64,000 nucleotides of DNA from an uncultured bacterium (GTDB lineage: Bacteria > UBP6 > UBA1177), in the NCBI GenBank assembly GCA_905233945.1, contig CAJOFY010000005.1:14698-78697 (forward strand). The letters run 5' to 3'. Positions 12,212 to 47,932 of this stretch are shown piece after piece; the first letter of the stretch is position 1, and every line of letters begins with the position of its first letter. Position numbers and translations under genes: made by a program. Under the pieces are notes generated by a model, which saw nothing but the letters and a program-made list of their open reading frames with translations, was not told where the DNA came from and searched no databases.

Positions 12212-12225
12212 GTGACGAAAAATAT

Positions 12226-12253
12226 TTGACAAAAAACATATTATTCATATAGT
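12226..12253 (+). promoter_or_regulatory. Sigma70-like promoter TTGACA-N16-TATAGT; start codon ~8 nt downstream of -10 (possibly leaderless)
   Basis: Near-consensus hexamers directly upstream of ATG 12262. Confidence 0.45.
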
Positions 12254-13225: not shown

Positions 13226-15088
13226 ATGAAAAAAATCACTTTCCTTCTTCTTTTTGTTTTATTCTGCATCGTTTCATGCTCGTCAAAAAATGAAAAACCT
13301 GTCACTGAAGCAGAAAAAGAAGCTGTGAAACCAGCTGAAAAACCGAAACTGATCACGGACTACATCGGAATCGAAACATCCTATTCCGGTTATCTTATGG
13401 AAAACGGCTCAAAACTTTACATTGCGAGGAAAGGCAACGCAGCCCAGCTCTACCTCGAATCTGCCGACGGGAAAGAGGAAAAGCAGCTCACTTTTCTTGA
13501 TGATGCGGTCGAGGATTATACGCTGAGTCCCGATGAGTCGCAGCTTATTTTTACAGCTGCAAAAGGCGGCAACGAGCAGTATGATTTCTATCTTTACTCT
13601 TTCAAAACGGGAAAATACGAGCCGCTTCTCGCCGACGATGCTGTGCGCTACGAAGATCCAATATGGCTGAACGAAAACGAGATTCTGTATGCTTCAAACG
13701 AGGCCAACGGAAAGGATTTTTACATCTATCACTTTGATATTGCTGCGAAAAAACGGACTTTGCTTGTCGAGAAAAAAGGCTTCAACAATATCAGCGACGC
13801 CATCTCGAAAGACGATTTCCTTTTCTATACCTACGAAAGCAACATGAAAACCGTTCCGTACCGTTTTCAGAACGGTAAGGCGAAAAAAATGAAAGTCTCC
13901 GATGAAAACAAAAAATATATTCCGGTTGCCTATTTCGACGGCGGTATTCTGATGAAGACAAACGAAAAAAATGACATGGAATACCTTGAAATTGTTCTTG
14001 ATTTTGCCAAAAAACCGGTTTTTGAGGACAAATGGGGCGTTGAATCGGTCGTTGTTGACAAAAAAAGCCGCGACGAAGCCGTTTTCTGCACGAACGAGGA
14101 AGGTTACAGCAGGTGTTTCCACTACAAAAAAGGGGAAATCAAGCCGCTTGATTTCGGTAAATCACTGGTCGGCCTGAACTCGCTTAAAAACGGAAAACTG
14201 GTTCTGAAAGTTTCTTCCGAAGGCGCGATCCCTCAACCGCAAGTATTTGATTTAACTGCTGAAACAACGCAGAAATTCGGCTATTTCAATACAAACGGAA
14301 TCGATGTTTCCAAGTTTGCCTCTCCCGAGCTCAGAAAGGTAAAAAGTTTCGACGGAGAGGAAATTCCCTATTTCCTTTATCTGCCGAAAACGGGAAAAGC
14401 GCCTTTTCCGACAATCGTTTACTTTCACGGCGGGCCGGAAGGACAGTTCAGACCTGGTTTCACGACGCAGTTCCAGTACTATCTTTCAAAAGGGATTGCC
14501 GTTGTAGCGCCGAATGTCCGCGGATCATCGGGCTACGGCAGAAGATATATGGATCTTGACAACTACAAACTCCGCATGGATTCTGTGCGTGACGGAGGAG
14601 CGGTTCTGGAAGATCTGGTAAAAAGCGGCATTTCAAAACCGAACGGATTCATTGCAAACGGCGGAAGTTACGGCGGATTCATGACAGTCGCATCAATGGC
14701 GCAGTTTGCCGATGACTACATCTGCGGAATCGACAATGTCGGAGTTGTTGACCTTATAAATTTCCTTGAAAATACATCAAGTTACCGACGTCATCTGCGC
14801 GAAGCCGAATACGGGCCGCTTACCGACAGGGAGTTCCTGGCTTCGATTTCTCCAACAAACATGGTCGATAAAATCAAAGGAGAGCTTTTCGTTTTCCACG
14901 GTGCGAACGATCCGCGTGTCCCGGTGAGTGATGCCTACATTCTGATTGATAAAATGAAAAAAGCGGGCAGAAAAGTGCAGAAGTATATTTTTGAGGATGA
15001 AGGACACGGCTACCGCAAAAAGGCAAACCGCGAAGTCTACTTCCTTAAAAGTGCAGAATTCATTGAAAACTGTGTTAAGAGTAAATAA
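13226..15088 (+). CDS. S9 family serine peptidase (prolyl oligopeptidase/acylaminoacyl-peptidase-like) lipoprotein
   Basis: Lipobox IVSCSS; N-terminal beta-propeller-like region; catalytic triad context GGSYGG, HGANDPRV, EDEGHG. Confidence 0.75.
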   Translation: MKKITFLLLFVLFCIVSCSSKNEKPVTEAEKEAVKPAEKPKLITDYIGIETSYSGYLMENGSKLYIARKGNAAQLYLESADGKEEKQLTFLDDAVEDYTLSPDESQLIFTAAKGGNEQYDFYLYSFKTGKYEPLLADDAVRYEDPIWLNENEILYASNEANGKDFYIYHFDIAAKKRTLLVEKKGFNNISDAISKDDFLFYTYESNMKTVPYRFQNGKAKKMKVSDENKKYIPVAYFDGGILMKTNEKNDMEYLEIVLDFAKKPVFEDKWGVESVVVDKKSRDEAVFCTNEEGYSRCFHYKKGEIKPLDFGKSLVGLNSLKNGKLVLKVSSEGAIPQPQVFDLTAETTQKFGYFNTNGIDVSKFASPELRKVKSFDGEEIPYFLYLPKTGKAPFPTIVYFHGGPEGQFRPGFTTQFQYYLSKGIAVVAPNVRGSSGYGRRYMDLDNYKLRMDSVRDGGAVLEDLVKSGISKPNGFIANGGSYGGFMTVASMAQFADDYICGIDNVGVVDLINFLENTSSYRRHLREAEYGPLTDREFLASISPTNMVDKIKGELFVFHGANDPRVPVSDAYILIDKMKKAGRKVQKYIFEDEGHGYRKKANREVYFLKSAEFIENCVKSK

Positions 15089-35160: not shown

Positions 35161-35883
35161 ATGCAAACTCTTGTTTATATCGCAAATACTGAATCTCTGA
35201 AGGAAAACGGGCTTTACAATGCTGCCTTTGACGCCGTCTCGGCAGAGCGCAAAGATAAAGTTCTCCGTTACCGTTTTCTGAAGGACAGAGTGCTTTCGCT
35301 GGGTGCCGAGGTGCTTTTGAGAAAGGCTTTAAGGGAATGCGGGATTGAAATTCCGGAAATTCATTACGGTTTTGAAATAAACGGAAAGCCTTTTCTCAAA
35401 GGGGTCGAAGGATTTGATTTCAATATTTCGCATTCCGAAGATTTTGTAATGGTCGCCCTTTCCGGGAACGAGACCGGCTGCGACATCGAGAAAATCACTG
35501 AGATCGATCTTGAAATTGCAAAAAAATTCTTTTTCCGTGAAGAGTATGAAAATATCGCGGTTCTTCCGGCTTCAGAAGAAAGGAACGAACTTTTTTTCCG
35601 CTACTGGACGCTGAAAGAGAGTTTTATGAAGGCGACGGGGCTCGGAATGAGGCTTCCGCTCGACTCGTTCCAAATACTTATCGGTAATGACGGAAAAACC
35701 GGTGTGCGGCAGAGCGTTGATACAAAAAATTACAATTTCACCGAAATCGATGCTTTTCCGGGATATAAATGTGCCGTCTGCACGGCAGGAAATGCAGCAG
35801 AAACTGATGTGAAAATAGTGGATTTCAGAGAAATTTTAAATGGAGGAAACAATGGCGGTACAGAAGATCACAAAGGGAACTGA
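35161..35883 (+). CDS. 4'-phosphopantetheinyl transferase, Sfp type
   Basis: FNISHS, GCDIE, WTLKESFMKATG motifs. Confidence 0.75.
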   Translation: MQTLVYIANTESLKENGLYNAAFDAVSAERKDKVLRYRFLKDRVLSLGAEVLLRKALRECGIEIPEIHYGFEINGKPFLKGVEGFDFNISHSEDFVMVALSGNETGCDIEKITEIDLEIAKKFFFREEYENIAVLPASEERNELFFRYWTLKESFMKATGLGMRLPLDSFQILIGNDGKTGVRQSVDTKNYNFTEIDAFPGYKCAVCTAGNAAETDVKIVDFREILNGGNNGGTEDHKGN

Positions 35884-36145
35884 AGTAACTTTGAAAGTCG
35901 ACGGCTGGCTTGACACGCAGTCCTCGCCGGAACTCGAAAAGGCTGTTTCAGAGCTTGAAAGCAATGTCGGATCACTTGTTCTTGACCTTGAAAAACTTGA
36001 ATACATCTCCTCCGCAGGGCTTCGCCAGATAGTCGCTGCGCACAAAAAGATGAACGGAAAACTCACTCTCAGGCATGTTCAACCCGACATTATGAGCGTG
36101 CTCAGCATGGCAGGATTTGACAAAAGACTCCATATCGAAGCATGA
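35852..36145 (+). CDS. STAS-domain anti-sigma-factor antagonist (SpoIIAA/RsbV-like)
   Basis: STAS fold pattern with conserved phosphorylatable Ser (YISSAGLRQI); start at MAVQK after GGAGGA. Confidence 0.65.
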   Translation: MAVQKITKGTEVTLKVDGWLDTQSSPELEKAVSELESNVGSLVLDLEKLEYISSAGLRQIVAAHKKMNGKLTLRHVQPDIMSVLSMAGFDKRLHIEA

Positions 36146-38091
36146 AACACTCCATCCAGAAAGAGATAATCGTAGTACTTGCGCTGGAGCTGATCGCGGT
36201 CATTGCCGCATGCGCACTCGTCACCTACCGCAATTTCTATTCGTCGGCACTCAAAACTTCCCGCGACGATTCCAGAAACGCGGCAAAGGCTGCCGGAACA
36301 ATAATCTCGGAATACGGACTTGATGCCGTGACTGATCCGGAGAACAAAGAACTTTACGGCAAAATACGCCGCAGACTGAGAGCGATATGCAAAGCTTTCG
36401 AACTTGATTATCTTTACATCTACACGATCGAAGGAAACGACGAGTGTCACTACATCATGGCCGTTGCCTCAAAAGACGAAAATGACCGCATCGCGGCGGA
36501 ACGGCTGGGGCTCGGCACGATAAGAGACTGTCATCCGCTCCATGCTCAGGAACAGGCTGCGATAAAGGGGGAAATAAGCGACGAACTCTTGATCCTCAGA
36601 AACGAATTCGGCGGGGATATGACCTGGATAGTCCCGTTTTTCGATAATAACGGCAAAGCCAGGGCTTTGATCGGCGCTGATGATGCTCTATATCTGTACA
36701 ATGCAGGGATCACCAGACATTTCTTTGTGGCACTGATCCCGATCTCGCTGCTCATCTTTATCGCCCACATGGTGCTTTTCTTTATAATCCACCGCAGGAT
36801 AGTGACCCCCGTGAAAACAATCGCAAACCGTATGCGGACTTTCGATCCGTCGCATGAGGAAGAACCTTTGCAGGTAAATTCGCAGGACGAGATGAGATCC
36901 ATTGCCGAAGCTTTTGAAAAAATGTCGCACGACATTCACCTCTACATCGAAAACATAGCTTCAATCACCTCGGAGCGCGAGCAGTCCAGAGCACAGCTTG
37001 ATGTTGCAAGGAAAATACAGTACGGCATGGTTCCAGCTTCCTTCAGTGAAAACAGAAACGGTGTCGATGTTTCCGCACTGATGCAGCCGGCAAAAGAGGT
37101 CGGCGGTGATTTTTACGACGCTTTTACCCTCGAAAACGGCAACTACTGCGCTCTGATCGGCGATGTTTCAGGCAAAGGAGTCGGCGGCGCACTGTTCATG
37201 GCACTTACGAAGTCGATACTTCGCGACAGAATGAAACAGATCATGGATCCAGCGGCAGTTCTCAACAAAGTCAACGACGATCTCTGCGCCCAGAATCCGG
37301 AAGGGATGTTCGCAACTGTCTTCGTGCTTGTGATCGATCCGAAAACGGGAGTCGTCACCTATGCCAACGCCGGTCACAATGCGCCCCTGCTGATATCGGG
37401 CGGCGAAGTCTCGTTTCTGAATCCAGAACCCGGGATCGCGCTCGGTCTTTTTGAAGACGCAGGCATCAGAAACGGAAATCTGACTTTGAAAAAAGGCGAA
37501 GGATTCCTGCTTTATACCGACGGAGTGACCGAAGCCGTGAACACGGAAAAAGCTTTCTACGGCGCGGAAAGACTTCTTTCTCTTTTGAAGAATAACACTC
37601 CGAAAGAGAGTTCTGCTGCTGTAAACGCTGTCAAAAACTCGGTTGAGGAGTTTTTCACCGGCTGCGATCAGTTCGACGACATAACCGTTCTTTCGCTTTT
37701 CTTCCGCAGCGGAGAAACGGTCTGTGAACTCAAGCCTGCACTCGAAGATTTCAGGATCGTGAAACAGACTGTAACGGAGAAATGTCCCGGCAGTCCCAAC
37801 GCTAAAAAAGCACTTCTTGCGTGCGAAGAAGCATTCGTGAATATAGTCAGCTATTCCGGCGCATCATACATTAAATTCTCGTGTTCAGCAGGCGGCGGCA
37901 TTCTCACCGTCACCCTGAAGGATAACGGCATTCGCTTCGACCCCTTTGCCGGCGAAAGTTCCGCAGAAAAGGATTTCGAATCTTTCGACAAAGGCGGCAT
38001 GGGTATCAGCCTGATAAAGCAGATAGCCGAAAAAACCGAGTGGAGATTCGAAAACGGAAACAATGTTCTGACATTGACTTTCAAGATATAA
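36142..38091 (+). CDS. Membrane sensor protein with fused PP2C/SpoIIE-type phosphatase and C-terminal HATPase_c (RsbW/SpoIIAB-like kinase) domain
   Basis: Two TM segments bracketing ~170-aa extracytoplasmic domain; PP2C motifs GGDFYD, IGDVSGKGVGGAL, YTDGVTEA; C-terminal GGMGISLIKQIAEKTEW ATP-lid; ATGA overlap with STAS gene. Confidence 0.65.
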   Translation: MKHSIQKEIIVVLALELIAVIAACALVTYRNFYSSALKTSRDDSRNAAKAAGTIISEYGLDAVTDPENKELYGKIRRRLRAICKAFELDYLYIYTIEGNDECHYIMAVASKDENDRIAAERLGLGTIRDCHPLHAQEQAAIKGEISDELLILRNEFGGDMTWIVPFFDNNGKARALIGADDALYLYNAGITRHFFVALIPISLLIFIAHMVLFFIIHRRIVTPVKTIANRMRTFDPSHEEEPLQVNSQDEMRSIAEAFEKMSHDIHLYIENIASITSEREQSRAQLDVARKIQYGMVPASFSENRNGVDVSALMQPAKEVGGDFYDAFTLENGNYCALIGDVSGKGVGGALFMALTKSILRDRMKQIMDPAAVLNKVNDDLCAQNPEGMFATVFVLVIDPKTGVVTYANAGHNAPLLISGGEVSFLNPEPGIALGLFEDAGIRNGNLTLKKGEGFLLYTDGVTEAVNTEKAFYGAERLLSLLKNNTPKESSAAVNAVKNSVEEFFTGCDQFDDITVLSLFFRSGETVCELKPALEDFRIVKQTVTEKCPGSPNAKKALLACEEAFVNIVSYSGASYIKFSCSAGGGILTVTLKDNGIRFDPFAGESSAEKDFESFDKGGMGISLIKQIAEKTEWRFENGNNVLTLTFKI

Positions 38092-38292
38092 GATAAGACC
38101 TCATCCCTGACCCTTCTCCAGTGTGGCGAAGGGAACCTTATCTTGGCTCCCACTTCTCGCCTCTCACTCAGGGAGAGGTGGCAGCCGAAGGCTGACGGAG
38201 AGGGCTTCCGTCATGTTGAGCAAAGCGAAACATCTCTGACCTTGAACGGAAACGGGAATTATTTTGGTGAGTTATCTTGCGGCGGTGTTGGC

Positions 38293-38318
38293 AATTGTGC
38301 AGAACATTCTGCACAATT
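38293..38318. repeat. Perfect 12-2-12 palindrome AATTGTGCAGAA-CA-TTCTGCACAATT
   Basis: Direct reading of sequence. Confidence 0.9.
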
Positions 38319-38374
38319 TAGTTACCTCGGAAATAATCGAACGAACTTCTTCAAATGATTTCTGAATCAAGATT

Positions 38375-38425
38375 TTCATTTATATTTCCTCGCAGCATTT
38401 ATGGTGGTCATTGTGGTTGGCTCCG
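38375..38425 (-). repeat. Conserved ~50-bp gene-leader repeat, copy 1 (minus strand ...CAATGACCACCATAAATGCTGCGAGGAAATATAAATG)
   Basis: Near-identical to copies at 39463 and 40555; contains SD GGAGGA/GAGGA and ATG of a minus-strand ORF (here only 32 codons). Confidence 0.8.
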
Positions 38426-38426
38426 T

Positions 38427-38729
38427 CTATTTTTTACATTCATTCGCTATTTCTGCCGCTATATTATTCAGCATAACACAATCATTGCGGCTGATATGCC
38501 GTTTGCTGGCATCATATTCCCATGGACTGAGGATAAGCAGCTCTCCTGCAGCACAAGCATCGAAGAGGTTATCCTGCGGTTTGTAATATTCACGAAAACC
38601 ATTGTCCGCCAAATATATGAACGGCAGTTTTTCTTTCAGCAGAACTTCCATCACCTGCCGCTCCTGCGGTGAAATGAACGGAGAGACCATAACGGTACCG
38701 TTGCGGGCGGTAACAACACATCCGTTCAT
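38427..38729 (-). CDS. Hypothetical protein / possible gene fragment downstream of RAYT
   Basis: No SD; in the same frame as upstream RAYT gene separated by one TAA and 10 codons. Confidence 0.3.
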   Translation of the reverse strand: MNGCVVTARNGTVMVSPFISPQERQVMEVLLKEKLPFIYLADNGFREYYKPQDNLFDACAAGELLILSPWEYDASKRHISRNDCVMLNNIAAEIANECKK

Positions 38730-38759
38730 GTAGTCACGAAGCTGTTGATTATCGCCACG

Positions 38760-39467
38760 TTAAGCAGCCTCGACCATTGTACGGCAGACATGCACTGGAG
38801 CAAAATGCCCAGCTTGCAGCAGTGACACATTGCCGACTCCGGAATAAGTTCTGCCGGCTATCTCTATGCCGGTTTGCACGCGGAAAAAGCCGGGACGCAG
38901 CCGTTTTGTGGCGAGACGCTGAGGATTCATCCTGATATAGCGGAACATTGTTTGCAGCTGTCCGCGGCGTGACAGCGGGCGGACAAAAGGCATTGCTGTG
39001 AAAACGGGATCCACATCTAACTTTTGTTTATCCCGAATACCATTCGGGTTATTTTCATTGTCATCATCATTTTGTCCATTACCTCGAATATTATTCGTGT
39101 GAATCGACAAACTATACTGTCGCCCGATTTTCTTTGCCCCTTGCCAGAAACCGCGCACAGCTGTCATAATGCCTTTTGGCATGGGCTGTGTAACATAGAG
39201 TATTGTGTGTAGATGATCCGGCATAAGGCAATATTGCAAAGTACGGATTTCAGGATGAAAATCGGAAATTTTGAACATAATACTGATTATTTGTTTTCCT
39301 AACTCTGTAGATTCCACTCTTGCTTGTGCAGGGTCATTTTCTGGAATAACAAGTGAGCCTAAGAGTGGCTCGCGGCTCGGAATCACCATCGTAACATGGT
39401 AAATACCGATTCCTTTCCATGCCGTGCCGGGCTTTTGCCAGTGCCATCTGTCAGGCTCATTTTCCAT
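38760..39467 (-). CDS. REP-associated tyrosine transposase-like (IS200-like Y1 HUH transposase, RAYT)
   Basis: IYHVT, PDHLHTIL (HuH) and RYIRMNPQR (catalytic Tyr) motifs; preceded by conserved leader repeat. Confidence 0.6.
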   Translation of the reverse strand: MENEPDRWHWQKPGTAWKGIGIYHVTMVIPSREPLLGSLVIPENDPAQARVESTELGKQIISIMFKISDFHPEIRTLQYCLMPDHLHTILYVTQPMPKGIMTAVRGFWQGAKKIGRQYSLSIHTNNIRGNGQNDDDNENNPNGIRDKQKLDVDPVFTAMPFVRPLSRRGQLQTMFRYIRMNPQRLATKRLRPGFFRVQTGIEIAGRTYSGVGNVSLLQAGHFAPVHVCRTMVEAA

Positions 39468-39512
39468 TTATATTTCCTCCAAGCATTTATGGTGGTCATT
39501 GGTTTTGCTCCG
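39463..39512 (-). repeat. Conserved gene-leader repeat, copy 2
   Basis: TTCCATTTATATTTCCTCCAAGCATTTATGGTGGTCATTGGTTTTGCTCCG. Confidence 0.8.
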
Positions 39513-39527
39513 TTTTCATCTCGTAAT

Positions 39528-40559
39528 TTAAATTTTTTCTTCCAATATTCCGCTAACCAATTTGCGCAGTTCCTCACGGTTTGGCAAATACAGTTCATAT
39601 TTTGAGACAAACAGATTGCTGTCCATTCCATAAGTTGTATACTCAACAAGCAGTTCATCTTTGTTGTGACTCAGAATAATTCCTATAGGCGGATTGTCGT
39701 TCGGTTCGTTTTCTTCCTTTGCAAAATAGCCCATATACATGTTCATTTGCCCGATATCTTCGTGTTTTACTGAATTTTTCTTTAAATCAATCAGCACAAA
39801 GCACTTCAAAATCCGGTGATAAAAAACCAAATCCACATGATAATGAACATTGTTTATTGTAATCGGATACTGCCGTCCGATGAACGCGAACCCTTTACCG
39901 AGTTCAAGCAGAAAGGTTTGAAGATTGTCAATAATCCGCTGTTCCAGATCACTTTCGGAATAACGCTCCATTTCAGGAAGTCCAAGAAATTCAAGCGTGT
40001 ATGTGTCTTTTACGACATCCATTGGTTTTTGAATTTCAATGCCTGTTTTTGCCAGTTCAAGAATTCCTTCCTTGTCTTTGCTTGCCGCAAGTCTCAAAAA
40101 CAGACCGGAATCCATCTGGCGGCGGAGGGAACGGACATCCCAGTTTTCTTTCACACATTCTTTTTCGTAAAAACTACGTTCAAGATCATCGTCTATTGTT
40201 ATTAACTCGCAGATATGGCTCCATGTTAATTTGTCAGAAGTCTGACAAAGTGGATATAGCAGGTAAAACTTCCGCATATTATTGAGATTTGGGCGGCTGT
40301 AACCTCTTCCCAAACGCATTGTCAGAATTTTAGCAAGATTTGTCAGCATTGAAGTTCCGTATTTAGCCTTTTTTCCACCGTCCTGCTCGAACTCGACAAT
40401 GTGATGTCCAACAGACCAATAAGTCTTGACCATGACGGCACTTATATTAAGTGCAAGACACGATTTTGTGAGATTCACTTCGTCAACAATAGTATTGGCA
40501 AGAACATTCAGTCTTTCATTTGTTTGAATTTCATCGTTTTTTACAAGTTCTTTATTCAT
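39528..40559 (-). CDS. YhcG-family PD-(D/E)xK nuclease (DUF1016)
   Basis: N-terminal GRGYSRPNLNNMRKFYLLYP (DUF1016_N-like) and C-terminal D...LIDLK PD-(D/E)xK motif. Confidence 0.65.
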   Translation of the reverse strand: MNKELVKNDEIQTNERLNVLANTIVDEVNLTKSCLALNISAVMVKTYWSVGHHIVEFEQDGGKKAKYGTSMLTNLAKILTMRLGRGYSRPNLNNMRKFYLLYPLCQTSDKLTWSHICELITIDDDLERSFYEKECVKENWDVRSLRRQMDSGLFLRLAASKDKEGILELAKTGIEIQKPMDVVKDTYTLEFLGLPEMERYSESDLEQRIIDNLQTFLLELGKGFAFIGRQYPITINNVHYHVDLVFYHRILKCFVLIDLKKNSVKHEDIGQMNMYMGYFAKEENEPNDNPPIGIILSHNKDELLVEYTTYGMDSNLFVSKYELYLPNREELRKLVSGILEEKI

Positions 40560-40606
40560 TTATATTTCCTCCAAGCATTCATGGTGGTCATTGGGGTTTG
40601 CTTACT
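40555..40606 (-). repeat. Conserved gene-leader repeat, copy 3
   Basis: TTCATTTATATTTCCTCCAAGCATTCATGGTGGTCATTGGGGTTTGC. Confidence 0.8.
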
Positions 40607-42041
40607 CTCTTTCTTTTACCAGTGAATAAGTTCTGTTCTTGTTCGCACCGTTGGCAACAATTTTTCCCTCTTCAACAAGTTCGGAAAGATAATCCTTTGT
40701 TCTCGATAGTTTAAGCCCGATATACAGCGAAATATCCTGTGTTTTGGCCTCGGTGTTATCTTTTAGATATTCCAGAATCTTATCTTTAAATTTTATCGCC
40801 GATTTATCGCCGATTTTAGTATTTATCACCGATTTATCGCCGACTTCAGTATTTATCGCCGATTTATCGCCGATTTTGGTGTAAGAGGGACGATAAAAAT
40901 TCACCCGCAGCATATCGCCGATTTCTAAGAACTCAGGTCTTTTGACGCCGTATTCATCACATTGAGAAAAAATGCGCTTAAATCCGGTTCCCCAGCCTTC
41001 AACAACATCTATTTTTTCTAAAGTGCGTGCAAGCGTCCTGTTTCTGACAGAAGAGCGGCCTGACAAGGCTTCTTCCAGTGTCAAAGAACCATATATGCTG
41101 CCGGGAGAAGAAATCTCGACTCTGTCGTCATAAACTGCGACCTGAACACTGGAACTCATCTGGTAGTTGCGGTGGATCACAGCATTTATGATAAGCTCGC
41201 GGATGGCTTTAGGCGGAAGTTCGTATCTTTCTTTGCGGACAATACCGTCTATTTCCACAGCCATGCTGAGATAGTTCAAAACGAATTTATATGCGCCGTC
41301 TATCTGCTCGCAAAGCGGTCCTTCATATTCCTTTTTATCAAGAAAATCGACGCGTTCCGTCCCTCTGAATCTTGCACACTGAATGCGTGAAGTATAGTCA
41401 TGTTTTCCCAGAAGAATAGCGTAAGCATTTGTCGCGATATCCTGCTTGATGCTGGTGAAAAGATTCAAGTTTTTCAATTCGTTCTTTGTGATTTTTCTCT
41501 CGGCGCGTTCCGAAAAATCCTTGCAGAGATATTTGATATCAGAAGCTTCAACTTTCAGTGAAGTAAACGGCAGTTCGTCATAATAAACATGGCGGCCACG
41601 GTTTGAAAGTTCATCCAAAGCCGTCCAGTCAGCATTGCGAGTCGTCGCTCCGCGCCTGATATAAGTTCCGTTTTCCTTACCCTGCGATTTCACATAATAC
41701 GGCGTGGCGTTTCCCGGAAAAACAGTTACAACAAGAAGCTGTGCGTTTTCGATGTTTTCAGCCGTTATGTCGAACATGATCTGCGGCTCGCATGTGTGGG
41801 CGATAGTGTCGGCAATACTGTCTTTCAGCTCGAACAGATCAATACTTTTCGGAATTCCGACAAATTCCCGCTTGTCATTCACGCCGATCACGAACTTGCC
41901 GCCAGCTCCGTTCGCAAAAGCGACAATTGTTTTCACCCATTTCCGCGCATCCTGCGGAAGTTCCTGCTTAAATTCAAGAGTTCGGCTCTCGCCGGATTTT
42001 ATTTCATCGAGTAAGGTCATTGTGTTTTGCTCCATTTTCAA
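40602..42041 (-). CDS. Schlafen-like AlbA_2 (divergent AAA) + HATPase_c_4 ATP-binding protein with C-terminal wHTH, paralog 1
   Basis: N-terminal ESRTLEFKQELP...IVAFANGAGGKFVIGV AlbA_2 signature; central ELIINAVIHRNY histidine-kinase-like ATPase; 3x10-aa tandem peptide repeat before wHTH. Confidence 0.65.
   Translation of the reverse strand: MKMEQNTMTLLDEIKSGESRTLEFKQELPQDARKWVKTIVAFANGAGGKFVIGVNDKREFVGIPKSIDLFELKDSIADTIAHTCEPQIMFDITAENIENAQLLVVTVFPGNATPYYVKSQGKENGTYIRRGATTRNADWTALDELSNRGRHVYYDELPFTSLKVEASDIKYLCKDFSERAERKITKNELKNLNLFTSIKQDIATNAYAILLGKHDYTSRIQCARFRGTERVDFLDKKEYEGPLCEQIDGAYKFVLNYLSMAVEIDGIVRKERYELPPKAIRELIINAVIHRNYQMSSSVQVAVYDDRVEISSPGSIYGSLTLEEALSGRSSVRNRTLARTLEKIDVVEGWGTGFKRIFSQCDEYGVKRPEFLEIGDMLRVNFYRPSYTKIGDKSAINTEVGDKSVINTKIGDKSAIKFKDKILEYLKDNTEAKTQDISLYIGLKLSRTKDYLSELVEEGKIVANGANKNRTYSLVKERE
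40793..40882 (-). repeat. 3 x 30-bp in-frame tandem repeat (KIGDKSAINT units) inside paralog 1
   Basis: TTTATCGCCGATTTATCGCCGATTTTAGTA x3 with minor variation. Confidence 0.85.
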
Positions 42042-42202
42042 ACAATCTCAGCAAAATTTACTGTATTTCCCCAAAAAATCAAATTGAATTTTGCGGTATT
42101 TCGACTTGATTTTAGAGAATCATTCTCAAACGAAGGATTTGTGAAAATATAAATGAAATCTTTGTCTTTGCTGTCCATTTTCAACCCGCACTTAAAACAT
42201 TT

Positions 42203-45200
42203 TTACTTCTTGAACTCCAAATATTCCGCGTATTTTTGCGCCATAAGATTTTTGATGTAACTTTCCATATACGCATAATCGGGCTTACCTGCGGAATCTA
42301 CAGGAAGAATAAGCTGATAAGAAGACAACCTGCTTTGTGTTATAGAATGAGCATGACCGAATCTGTCTGCTTGTTGAGAAATAATTTTACTTAAAAAAAT
42401 AAGTTGAAATTTATTCAACACCTGTTTGTGATATAAAATCGTAACATGAGAATCAACTGCCATAAAAGCGGGTTGATAATAAGCAAGTCCAGCTCCTCCA
42501 TCTCCATCATTATTTAAAGATATGCAGTTTCCTTCAAAATGTTTCTTGGAGTTTTGTGAAACAAACGCTTTTAAGCCATTATTTATTTTTTTGGCAGAGA
42601 TTAAAGGAATTTTACCTTCCTCAAGGACATTCATATTATTTTGATTTCCTTTTTTAAACATAAACAAGTTTGTTATTGGAAACGCCTTCCATTCCTTATC
42701 CTCAAGTTTTTCTATTTTGGGATTTACTTTTCCTTGGGTAGTCTTGAGGCATTCACTCAGCCGTTTTGTGGCAAAGCCCCGATATTCTTTAATTTTATGA
42801 TCTTCAAGTTCTTTTATATATGATTCCATGAAATTGTAGTCTATTTCACCTTTTGAATTTACAGGGAGGATGATATTCTGTGCTCTCATACGGTTTTCAT
42901 TGAATTTATACGCATATAAAAATTTAGATTTTTGTTGCAGGATATTTGTTTTCATAAATAACAAGGAAAATTTATTATCTTTCCAGTTTCTTAGATGAAA
43001 TCTTTTCACGTCATCTGAAAAAATGCATTCATAAGGATGATAGAAGTTCTCAACAACACTGCCGTTATAATTTACGCCAAGAACATTTTTATCAAGGGAC
43101 TTATTTTCATTTGACACGAAATTGGTGATCCCATTGTTTGAATCAGAGGCTCCGATAAAAGGTCTTTCTCCTTGTTTCATCTCTGATGCCACAAGGCGTT
43201 TTCCCGCTTTTATCTCAAAAATATCAGTAAGTTTCGATTCTTTCCAATCTCGACTTGTCAGTTCTTTTTTAAAGTTTTTTTTTACGTTTTCCGAATTATT
43301 ATCGTCTTCAAAAAGATATTTTCTACCTTGCATGATCATTGAAAACTCAAAAGTAAGGTAATCTCCGACAGTCTTTTCAAAATCCTTGTCGGTAGGAATC
43401 TCGTCATTGAAATAATAAAAACTGTGCAGCCATTCATCTTCCGCTGTGATTGCCGTTTTTACGCAGAACTTCGTCGGAGCTTCAATGCGGTTAAACCACA
43501 CATCAAGCAAATGCTGCCTTTTGTCTTTTGCGCTCTCTGTCTCCAAAAGCCCGATATGCGGAGACACCTTAAAGCCGTCATCCTCAAAATTCACGAATTT
43601 GCATATCTTCTCTTTGTCATGCGGTACCCCAGCTGTAAAAACAGCAATGCACGGAATTACGCCGATTCCATAAAAGGTATCTTTCTGAAGCATAATCGTT
43701 CCTTCGAGCGTGTGCTTTTTCAAAATCGAATTTTTTATCTGCTGTTCTTCCTTTGATTTTCCGGTCATTGAACTTTGAGGAACTATCACGGCACATCTTG
43801 AATTTGGAAGAAGTGAATCCAAAAGATGTTCCGTAAAAGCAATTTCATAAAGACTCGGATCTTTTTTTGTTCCCTGAGAATAAGGCGGATTCAACATTCC
43901 GACTGTTGCTCTGAAGTCTGTCTGAAGCTGTTTCGGATTTTTAGCAAGAAAATCATCACAGTGCAAATTGCTTTTGCCGTCGCCTCGAAGAATCATGTTT
44001 GTTGTCGCTACAGTGAACATATCCGGACGAAGCTCTATTCCGAACAATTGATTTTTACGGATATGCTGTTGTTCACTTTCTTTTGTACTTTGCGAAAGCA
44101 TTTTATGAAGCGCAGCGACAAGAAAACCGCCTGTTCCGCAGCACGGGTCAAAAATTCTGTCGGTAGTTTTCAAATCAAGCAAATCGCAGAAAAGTTCCGT
44201 AATATGGCGTGGAGTAAGAACTATTCCTAAAGTTTGACCACTACCACCGGAATAGCGCATAAACTCGCCGTAAAAACGACCAAGATAATCCTCAGCCGAT
44301 TTTGTATATTTGATTGACTTATAAAGTTTTTCGTCCAGAAACTTTGCAAAGAATTTCAGCGGAGTTTCGCCAAGAGTCGCATTTTTTTCGTTTAACTTTG
44401 TACTGTCTTTTATGATTGCGAACTGCGAAAGAATTTTATCGATTTTTGTTATCGGCGATAAATCCGTTCTTTTGAAACTTGATTCAATCGCATTGTAAAT
44501 TTTCTGTCCGTCGGTTACGAAAGAGTCTCCGTTTAGTGAATCTATGCTGAAATTTCCATGGTCACGCTCACGCAAAGCAAGAAGAATTCCCGAAACAACA
44601 AGCGGTTTTTCTTCATCTTTCATATTACCGTAGTTTCTCAAATGCTCGTGCAATACTTTTGCATCCGCCAAGATCTCTTCCAGTTCTTTTTCTTTGTCGC
44701 TCGATTCCTTCAAGACATCGCAAAGATAATACTCGTCGATATTTTTTTCATTAAACGAAATAAAAGATTCAACATCTTCAAGCTGGTCAAACAGATTTTG
44801 CCTGTCATCAACAAAAAGCGGAGTAATCCGATGATTTTTTTCATTTCCGGAAACTCCTAAAGCAAAAACTTTTTTATAAGTCGTATTCTGAATCAAATGT
44901 TTCGCATAGAACAACGCGCCGTTCACGGCAAACTCAACAACATCTTTAGTCTCAAGGCTGATAAGTTTATTTGAATCGTATTTCACATGATTTTCGAGTT
45001 TCGGCTTATCTTCAATTACAATAATAAAATCTTTTACAACGCCCACATATTCAGGAAAACCGACTTTGCCAGTGCCGCGTTTTGACGCTGTTTTTAAAGC
45101 CTCATCAATTTCTTTTATTTCGCTTCCCTGTGCATCTAATTCTATTCCGGCTTCTTTCAGTAAATCGTGAACCCACAAATCGGTTTTAACTTCTTTTTTT

Positions 45201-45205
45201 GCCAT
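42203..45205 (-). CDS. Single-chain restriction-modification protein: N-terminal putative PD-ExK nuclease + HsdM-like N6-adenine methyltransferase + two HsdS-type target-recognition domains (Type IIB/IIG-like)
   Basis: MTase motifs LGIVLTPRHITELFCDLL, FDPCCGTGGFL, MLNPPYS; two TRDs each followed by conserved helix (DYNFMESYIKEL / DYAYMESYIKNL); N-terminal FPEYVGVVKDFIIVIEDK possible nuclease motif. Confidence 0.7.
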   Translation of the reverse strand: MAKKEVKTDLWVHDLLKEAGIELDAQGSEIKEIDEALKTASKRGTGKVGFPEYVGVVKDFIIVIEDKPKLENHVKYDSNKLISLETKDVVEFAVNGALFYAKHLIQNTTYKKVFALGVSGNEKNHRITPLFVDDRQNLFDQLEDVESFISFNEKNIDEYYLCDVLKESSDKEKELEEILADAKVLHEHLRNYGNMKDEEKPLVVSGILLALRERDHGNFSIDSLNGDSFVTDGQKIYNAIESSFKRTDLSPITKIDKILSQFAIIKDSTKLNEKNATLGETPLKFFAKFLDEKLYKSIKYTKSAEDYLGRFYGEFMRYSGGSGQTLGIVLTPRHITELFCDLLDLKTTDRIFDPCCGTGGFLVAALHKMLSQSTKESEQQHIRKNQLFGIELRPDMFTVATTNMILRGDGKSNLHCDDFLAKNPKQLQTDFRATVGMLNPPYSQGTKKDPSLYEIAFTEHLLDSLLPNSRCAVIVPQSSMTGKSKEEQQIKNSILKKHTLEGTIMLQKDTFYGIGVIPCIAVFTAGVPHDKEKICKFVNFEDDGFKVSPHIGLLETESAKDKRQHLLDVWFNRIEAPTKFCVKTAITAEDEWLHSFYYFNDEIPTDKDFEKTVGDYLTFEFSMIMQGRKYLFEDDNNSENVKKNFKKELTSRDWKESKLTDIFEIKAGKRLVASEMKQGERPFIGASDSNNGITNFVSNENKSLDKNVLGVNYNGSVVENFYHPYECIFSDDVKRFHLRNWKDNKFSLLFMKTNILQQKSKFLYAYKFNENRMRAQNIILPVNSKGEIDYNFMESYIKELEDHKIKEYRGFATKRLSECLKTTQGKVNPKIEKLEDKEWKAFPITNLFMFKKGNQNNMNVLEEGKIPLISAKKINNGLKAFVSQNSKKHFEGNCISLNNDGDGGAGLAYYQPAFMAVDSHVTILYHKQVLNKFQLIFLSKIISQQADRFGHAHSITQSRLSSYQLILPVDSAGKPDYAYMESYIKNLMAQKYAEYLEFKK

Positions 45206-45304
45206 GCTAAACTCTCCTTGACAACCAAAACCTGCTGGTTGCTATGTACTATAAAAAATCCCCTTTCTTATTTCAATAGCGTAAATATCTAATTTTATTG
45301 AATG

Positions 45305-45360
45305 ATTTTGAAATTTGGATGTTAGACAATCTTGACTCGGAGAATGAGAAAATGCGTTGT
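45305..45360. repeat. Intergenic repeat R1 copy A (TTGAAATTTGGATGTTAGACAATCTTGACTCGGAGAATGAGAAAATGCG)
   Basis: ~85% identical to 46940-47000. Confidence 0.7.
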
Positions 45361-45411
45361 TAATGTACTGATATTTTTAACGACAAATAATAAATCGTAA
45401 AAACATAAGCT

Positions 45412-46866
45412 TCAGATCTTTTTGTTTAGAATATATGTTCTATTGCGGTTTGCACCTTTTGCTATAATTTTACCGGATTCAACAAGGTCATATAGATAGA
45501 ATTTTGTCTGCGTAGCCTTCAAACCGAGCATTTCGCTGAGTTCTTTCAAAGCGCACTCTTCGTGGTTTTCCAAATATTCGAGGATAAGTGATTTAGCGTT
45601 CCTTTTTGTCGTCGGTTTATCGTCGGTTTCTGGTTTTGTCGTCGGTTTATCGTCGGTTTTTGGTTTTGTCGTCGGTTTATCGTCGGTTTTTCGGTAAATA
45701 TTCGTGCGGATTGCAATTTCCATATCAATAAATTCAGGCTCGGCAAGACCGGAATCTTTAAGCGAATCTATAATTCGCGGAATTCCTGTTCCCCATTGCT
45801 CTATCAAGCGCATATAATGAAAAGCATTGGCTATAGCCTCGTTGCGGACTTTGGAAAACCCCTGTTTCATACGTTCAATTGTTATTCCTTTAGGCAGTCC
45901 GCCGGGAGAAGTGATTTCAAGCCGGTCATCAAAAATCGCAATCTGAATATGGGATACTTCAAGATAACTGCGGTGAAGAACAGCATTTATGATCAATTCG
46001 CGAATCGCTGTCGGAGGAATTTCATAGACATCCTGCCTGAAAAGCCCTTTTATTTCAGCACCAAGATGGATGTTGCGCAGAACAAAACTGTAAGCATCTT
46101 CAATCTGCTGCTGAATCGGACCAGTAAACTCCCGTCGGTCAACAAACACACTTCTGTCGGTTCCTTTAAAAACCGCACACTGTATTTTCGCGCACCACAA
46201 CGAATTTTTTGAAAGCAGATCAAAAGCATTCGTCCTGCAAAGCCTGCCGTTGTTTTCATATAAAAGTTGCCACGAAAGCAGATTGTTCTTTGTCAGCGGT
46301 TTAATATTCCGCCTCTGTTCGTCAGTTTTGCAGTTTTTAATTGCTGTCGCTTTCAAAGAATTGCAAAAAGATCGAAGTTCTTTTTCCAAAACAAACTTTT
46401 CACGCTGAACCGTTCTATCAAAACCCGTGTTTGAACCTTCAAACATCAGAGCTCTAATGGTGTCTCTGTCAGCAAGCCGCGTAGTTGCGGAAAGACGCAC
46501 GAAACAACCGTTTTCAAGCCCCAAAGACTTTATGTAGTAAGGCGTGTGCTCACCCGGATAAATTTGTGCGACAATAACCGTTTTATTCTGTAAAGTCTGC
46601 AAAGAAACATCACACATAATCTGCGGCATACAGTTGTCGTAAATCATATTGGAAACAGAATCGGCCGTTTTAAAAAGATTATCACTCTCTATCCCGACAA
46701 CATCATGCGTCTCATCATCTATTCCGAAAATAATCCGCCCTCCGTGCCCGTTTGCAAAAGCGACAACTGTTTTCAAAAATTTTATATGGTCATCCGGAAT
46801 CTGCCGCTTGTATTCCAGAGTGTTTGATTCAGGTTCTATTTTTGAAAAAATTTGATTTTTGATCAT
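45412..46866 (-). CDS. Schlafen-like AlbA_2 + HATPase_c_4 ATP-binding protein with C-terminal wHTH, paralog 2
   Basis: Same architecture as 40602..42041 (~35% identity); 3x10-aa tandem repeat TDDKPTTKP(K/E). Confidence 0.65.
   Translation of the reverse strand: MIKNQIFSKIEPESNTLEYKRQIPDDHIKFLKTVVAFANGHGGRIIFGIDDETHDVVGIESDNLFKTADSVSNMIYDNCMPQIMCDVSLQTLQNKTVIVAQIYPGEHTPYYIKSLGLENGCFVRLSATTRLADRDTIRALMFEGSNTGFDRTVQREKFVLEKELRSFCNSLKATAIKNCKTDEQRRNIKPLTKNNLLSWQLLYENNGRLCRTNAFDLLSKNSLWCAKIQCAVFKGTDRSVFVDRREFTGPIQQQIEDAYSFVLRNIHLGAEIKGLFRQDVYEIPPTAIRELIINAVLHRSYLEVSHIQIAIFDDRLEITSPGGLPKGITIERMKQGFSKVRNEAIANAFHYMRLIEQWGTGIPRIIDSLKDSGLAEPEFIDMEIAIRTNIYRKTDDKPTTKPKTDDKPTTKPETDDKPTTKRNAKSLILEYLENHEECALKELSEMLGLKATQTKFYLYDLVESGKIIAKGANRNRTYILNKKI
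45605..45692 (-). repeat. 3 x 30-bp in-frame tandem repeat (TDDKPTTKPx units) inside paralog 2
   Basis: GGTTTTGTCGTCGGTTTATCGTCGGTTTTT x3. Confidence 0.85.
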
Positions 46867-46879
46867 ATTTAGCTCCTCA

Positions 46880-47000
46880 AAAAAACAAAAACTCGAATAT
46901 TATAATAAATATTTTTGAAAATTGAAGAAAAATTTATCAATTTTGAAATTTAAATGTTAGACAATGTTGAGTCGGAAAATAATGAAATGCGATCTGCGAT
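46880..47000. repeat. Intergenic repeats R2 copy A (46880-46945) and R1 copy B (46940-47000)
   Basis: R2 copy A ~95% identical to 47797-47860; both precede minus-strand gene starts and contain TTCAAT-N16-TATAAT promoter-like elements on minus strand. Confidence 0.7.
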
Positions 47001-47083
47001 TGCGGAAAAACTTATTTTATTGAGCGGATTTTTATGAATTAATTTTGGTTGTGTTTAACTGTGTTTATATTTGCAGGAAAAAA

Positions 47084-47371
47084 TCAGTTGTTCTGCGGAA
47101 GGAATTCGATCTTGAGTTTCATTCCCATTCCGGTGGCAAGACGTTGCAGTGTTCTGAGTGAGGGATTGGCGTTGCCTTTTTCTATTCTGCTGATGTCGCC
47201 TTGTGCGATACCGGTGCGTTCGGAAAGTTCCTTCTGGGTGAGTCCCGATTGCTTGCGGGCATCGATAATCGCCTGAATTACGGCGTGTTCCGGCTGAAGA
47301 AGCTCGTATTCCGCCTTAAAATCGGGGTTTTTTAGCTGTTCTTTGAGGAAATCGTTAAATTTTTCGCCCAT
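47084..47371 (-). CDS. higA: HigA-family antitoxin (XRE HTH)
   Basis: LTQKELSERTGIAQGDISRIEKG helix-turn-helix; downstream of toxin gene with overlap. Confidence 0.75.
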   Translation of the reverse strand: MGEKFNDFLKEQLKNPDFKAEYELLQPEHAVIQAIIDARKQSGLTQKELSERTGIAQGDISRIEKGNANPSLRTLQRLATGMGMKLKIEFLPQNN

Positions 47372-47726
47372 TTTTATCTCCGTTTCTACGCAAATAATCA
47401 GCTCTGTATTTTTTCGCTCGTTCTATTTCGGCGGCCGGAGTTTTCTGCGTTTTTTTGATAAAACCGTGAGTCAGAACAATCCGCCGGTCAACATAAAAGA
47501 AATAGAAAACTCGCATTGCATTTGTTTCAGCCTGGGCTCTCAGCTCAAAAATCCCGTCCGACAAATATTTGGAATACGGCTCTCTCAAATCGTATCCGTT
47601 ATCCTGCAATATCGAGATCATGTCCGCCATTTTTGCCCTCATTTTGACACCCAGAGAAAGAAGAAAATCTTTTGCCGGCTTGTCACCATTCTCTTTCTCA
47701 TAAAATTCAACTTCAAAATTTGTCAC
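47355..47726 (-). CDS. higB: HigB/Gp49-like RelE/ParE-superfamily toxin
   Basis: Gp49/DUF891-like sequence (FELRAQ...RVFYFF...RIVLTHGFIKKTQKTP); toxin-first arrangement. Confidence 0.65.
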   Translation of the reverse strand: MTNFEVEFYEKENGDKPAKDFLLSLGVKMRAKMADMISILQDNGYDLREPYSKYLSDGIFELRAQAETNAMRVFYFFYVDRRIVLTHGFIKKTQKTPAAEIERAKKYRADYLRRNGDKNGRKI

Positions 47727-47796
47727 TGAACCACTACAAAAAATATTTTATGTGATTTATCCTATTTTGTCAATCTCGATTTTCACATCTTATAAA

Positions 47797-47860
47797 AAAA
47801 CAAAAACTCAAATATTGTAATAAATATTTTTGAAAATTGAAGAAAAATTTATCGATAATT
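47797..47860. repeat. Intergenic repeat R2 copy B upstream of higB
   Basis: AAAAACAAAAACTCAAATATTGTAATAAATATTTTTGAAAATTGAAGAAAAATTTATCGAT. Confidence 0.7.
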
Positions 47861-47932
47861 TATCAACAGCAAACATAATATTCATTGAATGATTCGCAAA
47901 CCGATTTTTACAAATCAGCTGAAAACAAACGA

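Follow-up and report, generated by a model that had tools for sequence, protein, structure and literature searches.

A probable anti-phage defence island of shuffled modules at a variable locus of a rumen spirochaete

The DNA analysed here, referred to as the window, is a stretch of 64,000 nt from an uncultured bacterium (contig CAJOFY010000005.1 of assembly GCA_905233945.1). It is a scaffold assembled from a metagenome and is identical to a rumen metagenome scaffold in ENA; the lineage that hosts it is a rumen spirochaete (Spirochaetales). A block of 9.8 kb in the window (38092-47905), in which all sizeable open reading frames (ORFs) lie on the minus strand, is likely to be a variable anti-phage defence island, the modules of which were shuffled as a mosaic at a chromosomal hotspot. 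Most likely, independent innate-immunity modules were shuffled by homologous recombination or gene conversion at leader and promoter modules, together with transfer between strains.

Different defence genes at the same locus in related genomes

A single scan of the GTDB species genomes, with the phosphatase that flanks the block on the left as the query, gave four close relatives (L002 to L005). Their phosphatases were 90–94% identical to that of the window in amino acids, and their flank DNA was 87–94% identical. Two of the relatives are labelled as uncultured Spirochaetales, one as a reindeer metagenome-assembled genome and one as UBA1177. The cargo found 3' of the phosphatase was different in each:

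L002 (about 3.9 kb): Abi_2 fragments, a small gene pair, a DUF1016_N fragment and an ORF6N-like gene, followed by the flank of the non-ribosomal peptide synthetase (NRPS)
L003: a Fic-like_C fragment, YhcG, DUF2326 plus HNH-CTD11 (PDC-M68/ABC-3C-like) and a split IIG-like restriction-modification (RM) gene
L004: two YhcG genes, a Schlafen gene, an Avs4-like protein of 1482 aa and a IIG fragment
L005: an intact HUH-DprA gene and a Type I RM system

The ORF6N-like gene of L002 was read from the sequence, not scanned, and the small two-gene pair there looks like a toxin-antitoxin pair. The right flank, the NRPS gene, was verified in L002 alone. Because four relatives with flanks 87–94% identical to the window hold different defence genes at this position, we regarded the locus as a variable defence hotspot. 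It lies between a STAS/SpoIIE partner-switching operon and the NRPS gene. An initial annotation, made from the letters of the window and their ORFs, had described an accessory defence island on the minus strand at 38092-47900. The comparison with relatives bore this out, and all the ORFs that it had named exist.

Homology to L002 ended at 38154, reappeared over 38141-38416, which holds a conserved stub and leader, and was restored permanently from 47906. The latter position was taken as the right edge of the variable region, and these limits agree with the 38092-47900 of the initial annotation. The skew in composition that the initial annotation had proposed to look for was also present. The GC content of 38092-47905 was 0.398, against 0.465 on the left and 0.483 on the right. 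GC at third codon positions (GC3) was 0.34 in the RM gene, against 0.57–0.59 in the flanking genes; it was 0.34–0.47 in five of the seven island genes, and 0.55 in HigA. The features of the block and its flanks are as follows:

36142-38091, plus strand: left flank, HAMP-SpoIIE-HATPase_c_2 phosphatase
38092-38264, no strand assigned: left junction, GC-rich with short hairpins, immediately 3' of the phosphatase stop codon
38265-38379, minus strand: stub of 38 codons, the 5' remnant of a second YhcG paralogue
38375-38435, minus strand: leader copy 1, before the stub
38427-39467, minus strand: HUH(Y1)-DprA-like fusion gene, one frame of 346 codons, formerly called 'RAYT-like'
39463-39523, minus strand: leader copy 2, before the HUH-DprA gene
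39528-40559, minus strand: YhcG/DUF1016 PD-(D/E)xK nuclease (PADLOC candidate PDC-S02)
40555-40615, minus strand: leader copy 3, before YhcG, spanning the 42-nt spacer from the Schlafen #1 stop to the YhcG start
40602-42020, minus strand: Schlafen(AlbA_2)-GHKL(HATPase_c_4)-winged helix-turn-helix (wHTH) protein #1, 472 aa, with ATG at 42020 and a GGAG Shine-Dalgarno sequence
42021-42202, minus strand: promoter and 5' untranslated region of Schlafen #1
42203-45205, minus strand: single-chain restriction-modification-specificity (R-M-S) enzyme (Type IIG), 1000 aa, with N6_Mtase and two Methylase_S stretches
45254-45356, minus strand: D4 copy 1, promoter module upstream of the RM gene
45412-46866, minus strand: Schlafen-GHKL-wHTH protein #2, 484 aa, with SLFN_AlbA_2 and HATPase_c_4
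46879-47004, minus strand: D3 copy 1 (46879-46941) and the abutting D4 copy 2 (46940-47004)
47084-47371, minus strand: HigA-like HTH_3/HTH_37 antitoxin (HTH_3, 51.9 bits)
47355-47726, minus strand: HigB-like toxin of the Gp49/RelE-ParE superfamily (Gp49, 6e-25, 87.6 bits)
47745-47905, minus strand: higBA promoter TTGACA-17-TAAAAT (47773-47745), D3 copy 2 and the right edge of the variable region
48024-55298, plus strand: right flank, NRPS of 2424 aa

At least two recognised defence systems are thus clustered in the block: the IIG RM enzyme, the Gp49/HTH_3 pair, PDC-S02 and the two Schlafen proteins. The AlbA_2, YhcG, R-M-S and HigBA assignments of the initial annotation held in scans with Pfam and PADLOC. 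The PADLOC REase_MTase_IIG model matched residues 2-636 of the R-M-S enzyme at 2.5e-160, and PDC-S02 matched YhcG at 1e-129. Among the Pfam families that it had named, PF04326, PF13749 and DUF1016 were matched; Y1_Tnp was not, as the HUH-DprA gene gave no Pfam match even at E<=10.

Near-identical modules in diverged genomes

YhcG of the window was 99.3% identical in nucleotides to that of L003, the flanks of which were 92.1% identical. The 2.5 kb that covers YhcG and Schlafen #1 was 98.7% identical to L004, with flanks 86.9% identical. The near-identity of the pair exceeded that of the flanks, and we therefore concluded that the two-gene unit moved recently between lineages.

Low GC, a transposase-like HUH gene and a toxin-antitoxin pair would also be found in a discrete mobile element (an integrative island, transposon or prophage remnant) that had been inserted once between the phosphatase and the NRPS gene. 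Neither an integrase nor another recombinase was detected among the island ORFs by the Pfam and PADLOC scans, and the window contained no tRNA gene and no repeat pair bounding the block. Megablast of the island against plasmid and phage records gave zero matches, and no member of the HUH-DprA family was found in IMG/VR. The relatives, moreover, showed piecewise replacement rather than presence or absence of a whole unit. A single insertion of such an element was considered highly improbable.

Leaders and promoter modules

A leader core of 35 nt occurred three times in the window, all inside the island, with 0 copies expected by chance. The core, CAATGACCACCATRAATGCTTGGAGGAAATATAAATG, holds the Shine-Dalgarno sequence and the start codon of the gene that follows, and it was conserved over 11 copies preceding different genes.

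The leader proved to be chimeric, with the 5' end of a Schlafen gene joined to the upstream region of a HUH-DprA gene. Its 5' half, GGAGCAAAACCAATGACC, corresponds to the start of Schlafen #1 (the Shine-Dalgarno sequence, the spacer and the first two codons), and comparison with L010 and L005 shows that its 3' half comes from the native upstream region of the HUH-DprA gene. Long leaders with about 27 Schlafen codons, MTLLDEIKSGESRTLEFKQELPQDARK, were located immediately 5' of HUH-DprA in L005, L031 and L033, in L010 and L011, and in L012 to L014. In L005, the equivalent of 42021-42202 plus the first 27 Schlafen codons precedes the HUH-DprA gene.

In contigs L037 and L038, a long leader of about 125 nt stood before five consecutive genes, and a partial copy before a sixth. 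The L037 leaders were 80–89% identical to one another (72–74% for the first copy), against 26–33% for the YhcG proteins behind them. This indicated that the leaders did not diverge along with the genes. A single ancestral accident that left a Schlafen remnant before HUH-DprA had been considered; it was dropped, since L037 has the module before five or six genes. The array, at 4862-9871 of L037 and also present in L038, contains HUH-DprA, two full YhcG paralogues and two DUF1016_N fragments.

In a scan across metagenomes, the short leader turned up on only four contigs, all with the same gene families. The arrangement in L031 and L033 was like that of L005. In L030, the leader preceded a DUF1016-type gene. 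In L032, two leaders preceded two Schlafen paralogues in a different island beside dnaE.

The two other repeat families were each present in two copies, 95% identical for D3 (46879-46941 and 47794-47856) and 85% identical for D4 (45254-45356 and 46940-47004). Copy 1 of D3 stands immediately before Schlafen #2 and was read as a putative promoter (TTCAAT-16-TATAAT), and copy 2 precedes the promoter of higBA. D4 precedes the RM gene of the window, a different IIG-like RM gene in L003 and hsdM in L005, and was also found in L002. The three-copy leader and the two repeat families described in the initial annotation were real, and the block is a mosaic with conserved junction and promoter modules. 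What had been taken for a simply duplicated leader was a joint of the Schlafen 5' end and the HUH-DprA upstream region.

A leader before unrelated or anciently diverged defence genes provides a sequence-level handle on cassette exchange within the hotspot. One promoter module (D4) preceding different restriction systems across strains is a handle of the same kind.

Possible functions of the leader

The conservation of the leader raises the alternative that it is a site-specific attachment site, on which HUH(Y1)-DprA acts as a single-strand DNA recombinase, so that genes of the Schlafen, YhcG/DUF1016 and HUH-DprA families would be captured and shuffled much as in an integron. The leader was found only before these three families (at least four types of YhcG, at least three of Schlafen, and HUH-DprA), in at least five genomic contexts, and it is much better conserved than the genes behind it. 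The HUH and Tyr motifs are invariant across the HUH-DprA family. Homology between Schlafen and leader stops just past a small potential hairpin, and HUH/Y1 enzymes cut next to hairpins (PMC6006769). However, the hairpin at this point of divergence has a stem of 5 bp, which is 80% paired with essentially no covariation, and the short leader gave no significant fold (z about 0). The islands of L002 to L004 are equally variable, yet they contain no HUH-DprA gene in the roughly 10 kb sequenced 3' of the phosphatase. The HUH-DprA copy of the window is itself broken by a stop codon, and other members stand solitary without a leader array (L015, L019 and L039). Ordinary homologous recombination accounts for the same leader pattern. 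An attachment site was therefore considered unlikely. If it were true, it would represent an undescribed cassette system with a short form of about 37–60 nt and a long form of about 125 nt, a defence-dedicated analogue of the integron.

In integron arrays, a short conserved repeat stands between genes that are unrelated or highly diverged. The leader arrays are similar in this layout of genes and repeats; the island differs in having no IntI integrase among its ORFs, and the leader in having no attC-like structure. Orphan toxin cassettes of contact-dependent inhibition (CDI)/Rhs systems each carry a conserved fragment of the main gene that permits recombination. Behind the Schlafen fragment of the leader, on the other hand, come a stop codon, a further Shine-Dalgarno sequence and an entire gene unrelated to it, and the fragment thus cannot serve the swapping of protein domains.

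Three other functions for the leader were tried and rejected. A structured leader RNA was ruled out, as all three leaders of the window folded at z about 0. The stop codon of an upstream ORF in the short leader (MTTINAWRKYK*) was kept in two of the three window copies, but copy 2 and L002 have lost it. A leader peptide encoded by the Schlafen-like mini-ORF in the long leader was also rejected: one L037 copy is disrupted by a frameshift or premature stop, and the differences between copies were judged to be mostly amino-acid changing; the mini-ORF looks like a relic.

Proposed assembly and action of the island

The modules of the island would act independently of one another, all being transcribed from the minus strand. 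The HigBA-like toxin-antitoxin pair would have its own sigma-70-type promoter. By analogy with characterised bacterial Schlafens, the two Schlafen proteins would be infection-activated, metal-dependent tRNA nucleases that halt translation, with the GHKL ATPase controlling their oligomerisation. The R-M-S enzyme would methylate a bipartite host site and cut unmethylated incoming DNA. The YhcG nuclease is co-inherited with Schlafen #1 as a two-gene unit, and the nonsense-interrupted HUH(Y1)-DprA-like gene makes a fifth module. The conserved non-coding modules (the 37-nt leader core, D3 and D4) separate the genes and gene pairs. Cassettes would be exchanged, lost or gained through homologous recombination or gene conversion between copies of these modules, and through horizontal transfer from one related strain to another.

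Assembly by recombination of cassettes had been proposed in the initial annotation. The mosaic and the near-identical modules in diverged genomes agree with this proposal, and the mechanism itself is suggested by patterns in the sequences.

Several points weigh against the interpretation of the block as a shuffled defence island. The recombination mechanism is deduced from such patterns, and the defence activity of the modules is predicted. YhcG is a PADLOC defence candidate only, nominated through 'guilt by embedding'. In a published phage panel, protection was given only by the DUF262 and Ig-like fusions of Schlafen, though HisKinase fusions had also been picked (PMC13056530). Because the HisKinase fusions were not among the protectors, defence by the Schlafen-HisKinase-HTH architecture is unproven. 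The window is also a metagenome scaffold, and the junction of YhcG, leader and HUH-DprA was seen in the window only.

This last point bears on the order of the triplicated leaders, which might have arisen in the assembly, if sequences of co-occurring strains had been merged at the leader. Leader copy 2 has an exact stretch of 46 nt in common with contig L030, through which the YhcG-leader-HUH junction might have been joined; this junction was seen only in the window, which is a metagenome scaffold. On the other hand, leader arrays are independently present in L032, L037 and L038, and the remaining junctions were confirmed in L003, L004, L005, L023, L031 and L033. There is also no known donor strain for the HUH gene of the window, as its 5' end was only 71% identical to L005. 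We considered a chimera improbable.

The Schlafen proteins

The two Schlafen proteins were 40% identical in amino acids. SLFN_AlbA_2 (PF04326) and HATPase_c_4 (PF13749) were matched in both at E-values of 1e-23 to 1e-28. The scores of the two proteins were 90.2 and 83.8 bits for AlbA_2 (gathering cut-off, 25.3) and 84.9 and 97.9 bits for HATPase_c_4 (cut-off, 26). The catalytic Ex4ExK motif, as defined by the Ex4(E/D)xK pattern of PMC13056530, was intact in both (ESRTLEFK in #1 and ESNTLEYK in #2). Matches to a C-terminal HTH were weak: FaeA scored 21.0 in #1 and 20.1 in #2, with a cut-off of 20.7, and HTH_24 was below threshold in both.

Each Schlafen gene contained three tandem units of 30 nt (40791-40880 in #1 and 45604-45693 in #2). 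These are explained by the linker between the GHKL and wHTH domains, which consists of three repeats of 10 aa (IGDKSAINT.. and TDDKPTTKP..). The lengths of Schlafen homologues vary, and the number of repeats may be a cause.

The initial annotation had called these AlbA_2 ATPases functionally uncharacterised. This did not stand, as the family has been described. The two proteins have the predicted Schlafen-HisKinase-HTH architecture, and Slfn-HisKinase (34%) and Slfn-HisKinase-HTH (19.2%) are the commonest architectures of bacterial pSlfns (PMC13056530). The pair of AlbA_2 and GHKL has been named 'Schlatpase', and a Schlatpase fused to pAgo showed ATP-driven tetramerisation and tRNA cleavage (bioRxiv 10.64898/2026.05.29.728809). 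For other Schlafen fusions, tRNA cleavage and phage defence have been demonstrated (PMC13056530). The window proteins share with these AlbA_2 with Ex4ExK, HATPase_c_4 and a place within a defence island, and perhaps an HTH at the C-terminus. The proven defenders are fusions to DUF262, Ig-like or pAgo domains, whereas the window proteins have another architecture. Two diverged paralogues with three 10-aa linker repeats each are likewise unlike the described systems.

The initial annotation had also proposed that the AlbA_2 ATPases pair with the RM enzyme. The two Schlafens could then be partners of the R-M-S enzyme, either as PrrC-like back-up tRNases released when restriction is inhibited or as HTH regulators. 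Schlafen genes lie on both sides of the RM gene on the same strand, and the weak C-terminal wHTH matches in both would suit a regulator. An identical Schlafen #2 protein was found on the independent contig L023, in the same order of HigA, Schlafen and RM. A Poribacteria operon has been reported in which the Schlatpase module either is joined to a Type I S subunit or is encoded on its own next to RM (bioRxiv 10.64898/2026.05.29.728809). A precedent for a link between tRNase and RM is PrrC-EcoprrI, in which a Type I RM system harbours an anticodon nuclease (cited in bioRxiv 10.1101/2024.01.29.577857). The resemblance is in a tRNA-cleaving effector gene beside RM, with cleavage by the window Schlafens assumed by analogy. 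Unlike in PrrC-EcoprrI, the linkage of Schlafen and RM is not conserved in relatives, and the nuclease fold is different.

The distribution of the genes did not support a functional pairing. Schlafen #1 is co-inherited with YhcG, not with RM, and adjoins the Avs4-like gene in L004. In L032, the Schlafen genes come after RelA_SpoT and NACHT genes. Among the called genes within 5–6 kb of four more distant Schlafen homologues (44–55% identity), RM Pfam domains were found in none of the four contexts. The RM gene (D4) and Schlafen #2 (D3 and D4) have separate intergenic modules upstream, and pSlfns are regarded as single-gene sensor-effector proteins (PMC13056530). Partnership with the R-M-S enzyme is thus unlikely, if somewhat less so than the other alternatives considered here, and we retained the reading of the Schlafens as independent modules.

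In the promoter region of Schlafen #1, the source annotation has an ORF of 46 aa (42038-42178, minus strand), which overlaps an alternative TTG start. No evidence was found for this ORF as a true gene.

The HUH(Y1)-DprA-like gene

The gene called a RAYT-like transposase in the initial annotation has the HUH/Y1 fold and motifs, and this part of the assignment stood. It failed the thresholds for RAYTs in Pfam and NCBIfam (REP_Tyr_transpos, 20.1 bits with a cut-off of 80), and it was accompanied by no flanking or dispersed hairpins of the repetitive extragenic palindromic (REP) type. A sequence search of the PDB gave no match. Structural modelling indicated a HUH/Y1 fold fused to a DprA-like Rossmann domain, by which the protein would differ from RAYT and TnpA-Y1. 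No mention of a DprA fusion was found in the text-searched parts of the TnpA-Y1 classification (PMC6006769).

Over 119 sequences, residues M82, P83, H85, Y177 and N181 were invariant, and D84 and H87 were at least 90% conserved. The motifs DHLH, WQ and RY-x3-NP are consistent with class 2 in the TnpA-Y1 scheme (PMC6006769). All the HUH and catalytic Tyr motif residues were kept in the window copy. Its frame was interrupted at 38760-38762 by a TAA in place of a Glu that is conserved in homologues; all the aligned homologues were uninterrupted across this position. An invariant Arg was also replaced by Cys. In the window, the gene has probably decayed to a pseudogene or been split in two.

The family has more than 3,300 homologues, and none of the 120 matches listed carried a precomputed Pfam domain. 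A profile search gave 438 clusters (50% identity) at E<=1e-30 and 1418 at E<=1e-10. Its members are mostly solitary, with neighbours that include AbiJ, Fic, MmeI-type RM, GrpB and, several times, YhcG. The gene recurs beside YhcG and Schlafen relics. It belongs to a large unannotated family, in which a HUH single-strand nuclease would be fused to a DprA-like single-strand DNA-binding domain. Its role could be in recombination, defence or counter-defence. No evidence was found that HUH-DprA moves the island.

Homologues also vary in a low-complexity insert of variable length (columns about 145-235 of alignment A1; window about 39000-39130). It is made of repeated IRDN(E/K)RS-like units of very variable copy number and follows the WQ helix, ahead of the next core strand. 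The insert recalls the REP insertions reported for TnpA-Y1 subclass 2.4 (PMC6006769).

YhcG and the stub

YhcG contained YhcG_C (1.5e-57, 194.3 bits) and DUF1016_N (2.5e-37, 128.5 bits). The first 16 or so codons of the stub (M-x-I-x-x-QKSFEEVRSII) matched the N-terminus of an intact YhcG of 376 aa in L037. The stub was also present in L002 to L005 and in L031. The version in L005 stops early, and the stub was therefore taken as non-coding for protein.

A strong hairpin lies behind the stub at 38293-38318 (-17.7 kcal/mol, z -4.1), with a conserved stem and a variable loop. The leader always stands before the stub and hairpin, once in each of L002 to L005, and leader and stub together form a conserved landmark of the left end of the hotspot. 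The hairpin was ruled out as a dispersed REP, since it is present in single copy per locus, even in loci without the HUH-DprA gene. No dispersed copies of it were found in the window.

The restriction-modification enzyme and HigBA

The R-M-S enzyme contained a PE...EDK nuclease motif at the N-terminus, the methyltransferase motifs DPCCGTGGF and NPPY, and Specificity_II over residues 610-803, with two target-recognition domains. It was about 50% identical to its closest annotated plasmid homologues. As in Type IIG and IIB enzymes, a single polypeptide combines a PD-(D/E)xK-type nuclease at its N-terminus with N6-adenine methyltransferase motifs of the gamma class and, towards the C-terminus, a pair of target-recognition domains. 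We take it to resemble the single-chain Type IIB enzymes of the AloI/CjeI kind.

In the toxin-antitoxin pair, higB precedes higA and the two genes share 17 nt, an order like that of HigBA. A segment of 24–26 nt in D3 (47833-47856 and 46918-46943) is the reverse complement, at 81–83%, of the first higA codons (47351-47374). The resulting inverted repeats enclose higB with its promoter, and higA. They may be a chance product of AT-rich sequence or an operator.

Comparison with known defence hotspots

The core hotspots of P. aeruginosa (PMC10250203) and the defence repertoire of E. coli (PMC10121019) likewise show conserved flanks and variable cargo, with atypical composition and a mixture of RM, toxin-antitoxin and Abi-type genes. 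Unlike those hotspots, the island of the window has no detected integrase or prophage context. Its cargo is separated by a leader derived from a Schlafen 5' end, and D4 precedes different RM types.

As such, the island is one more example of the well-known defence hotspots, from the poorly studied rumen spirochaetes. Its gene families are ordinary, with the exception of HUH-DprA. This family and the leader-linked cassette architecture are the unusual parts of the island.

Other features of the hotspot and its relatives

The second island with short leaders, in L032 (3327-14321), is an unrelated defence island adjoining the DNA polymerase III alpha gene. It contains an AlbA_2 fragment, a Type II methyltransferase, a ResIII-Eco57I protein of 1335 aa (Eco57I-helicase), NA-iREase2-NACHT and RelA_SpoT.

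The 1482-aa protein of L004 (16784-21232, minus strand) had no Pfam match, and its first 245 or so residues fit the PADLOC Avs4 model (1e-61). The gene lies directly upstream of the near-identical unit of Schlafen #1 and YhcG. A small Fic-like_C ORF was found downstream of YhcG in L003 (12438-12920) and L004 (13829-14299). Some Schlafen-GHKL homologues have Fic-like_C instead of the wHTH, and these ORFs may be the 3' relic of a Schlafen-GHKL-Fic-like_C gene. The window keeps just the final 15 nt or so of the Fic-like_C gene (about 39500-39527), preceding leader copy 2.

Rfam models (E<=1) matched the island only once, at chance level, and never above threshold.

The left flank contains a phosphopantetheinyl transferase (AASDHPPT_N/ACPS, 35161-35883), a STAS protein and the SpoIIE-type phosphatase. 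On the right are the NRPS, with a terminal reductase domain, and an ORF of 737 aa (48024-57515). The island looks as if it splits one biosynthetic neighbourhood (35161-38091 and 48024-57515). In L002, the same two flanks enclose a much shorter cargo.

The left junction had no second copy anywhere else in the window. Pieces of it reappeared in L002 to L005 in varying number and order; 38097-38136, for example, matched 12047-12086 of L003 at 100%. GC-rich hairpin units, such as CCTCTCACTCAGGGAGAGG and CAGCCGAAGGCTG, marked the hotspot's left edge and also lay between cassettes in the relatives, again varying in number and order. They were located at 38092-38264 in the window, at 11951-12010, 13340-13470 and 14180-14300 in L002, at 11975-12280 in L003, and at 11960-12240 and 13440-13690 in L004.

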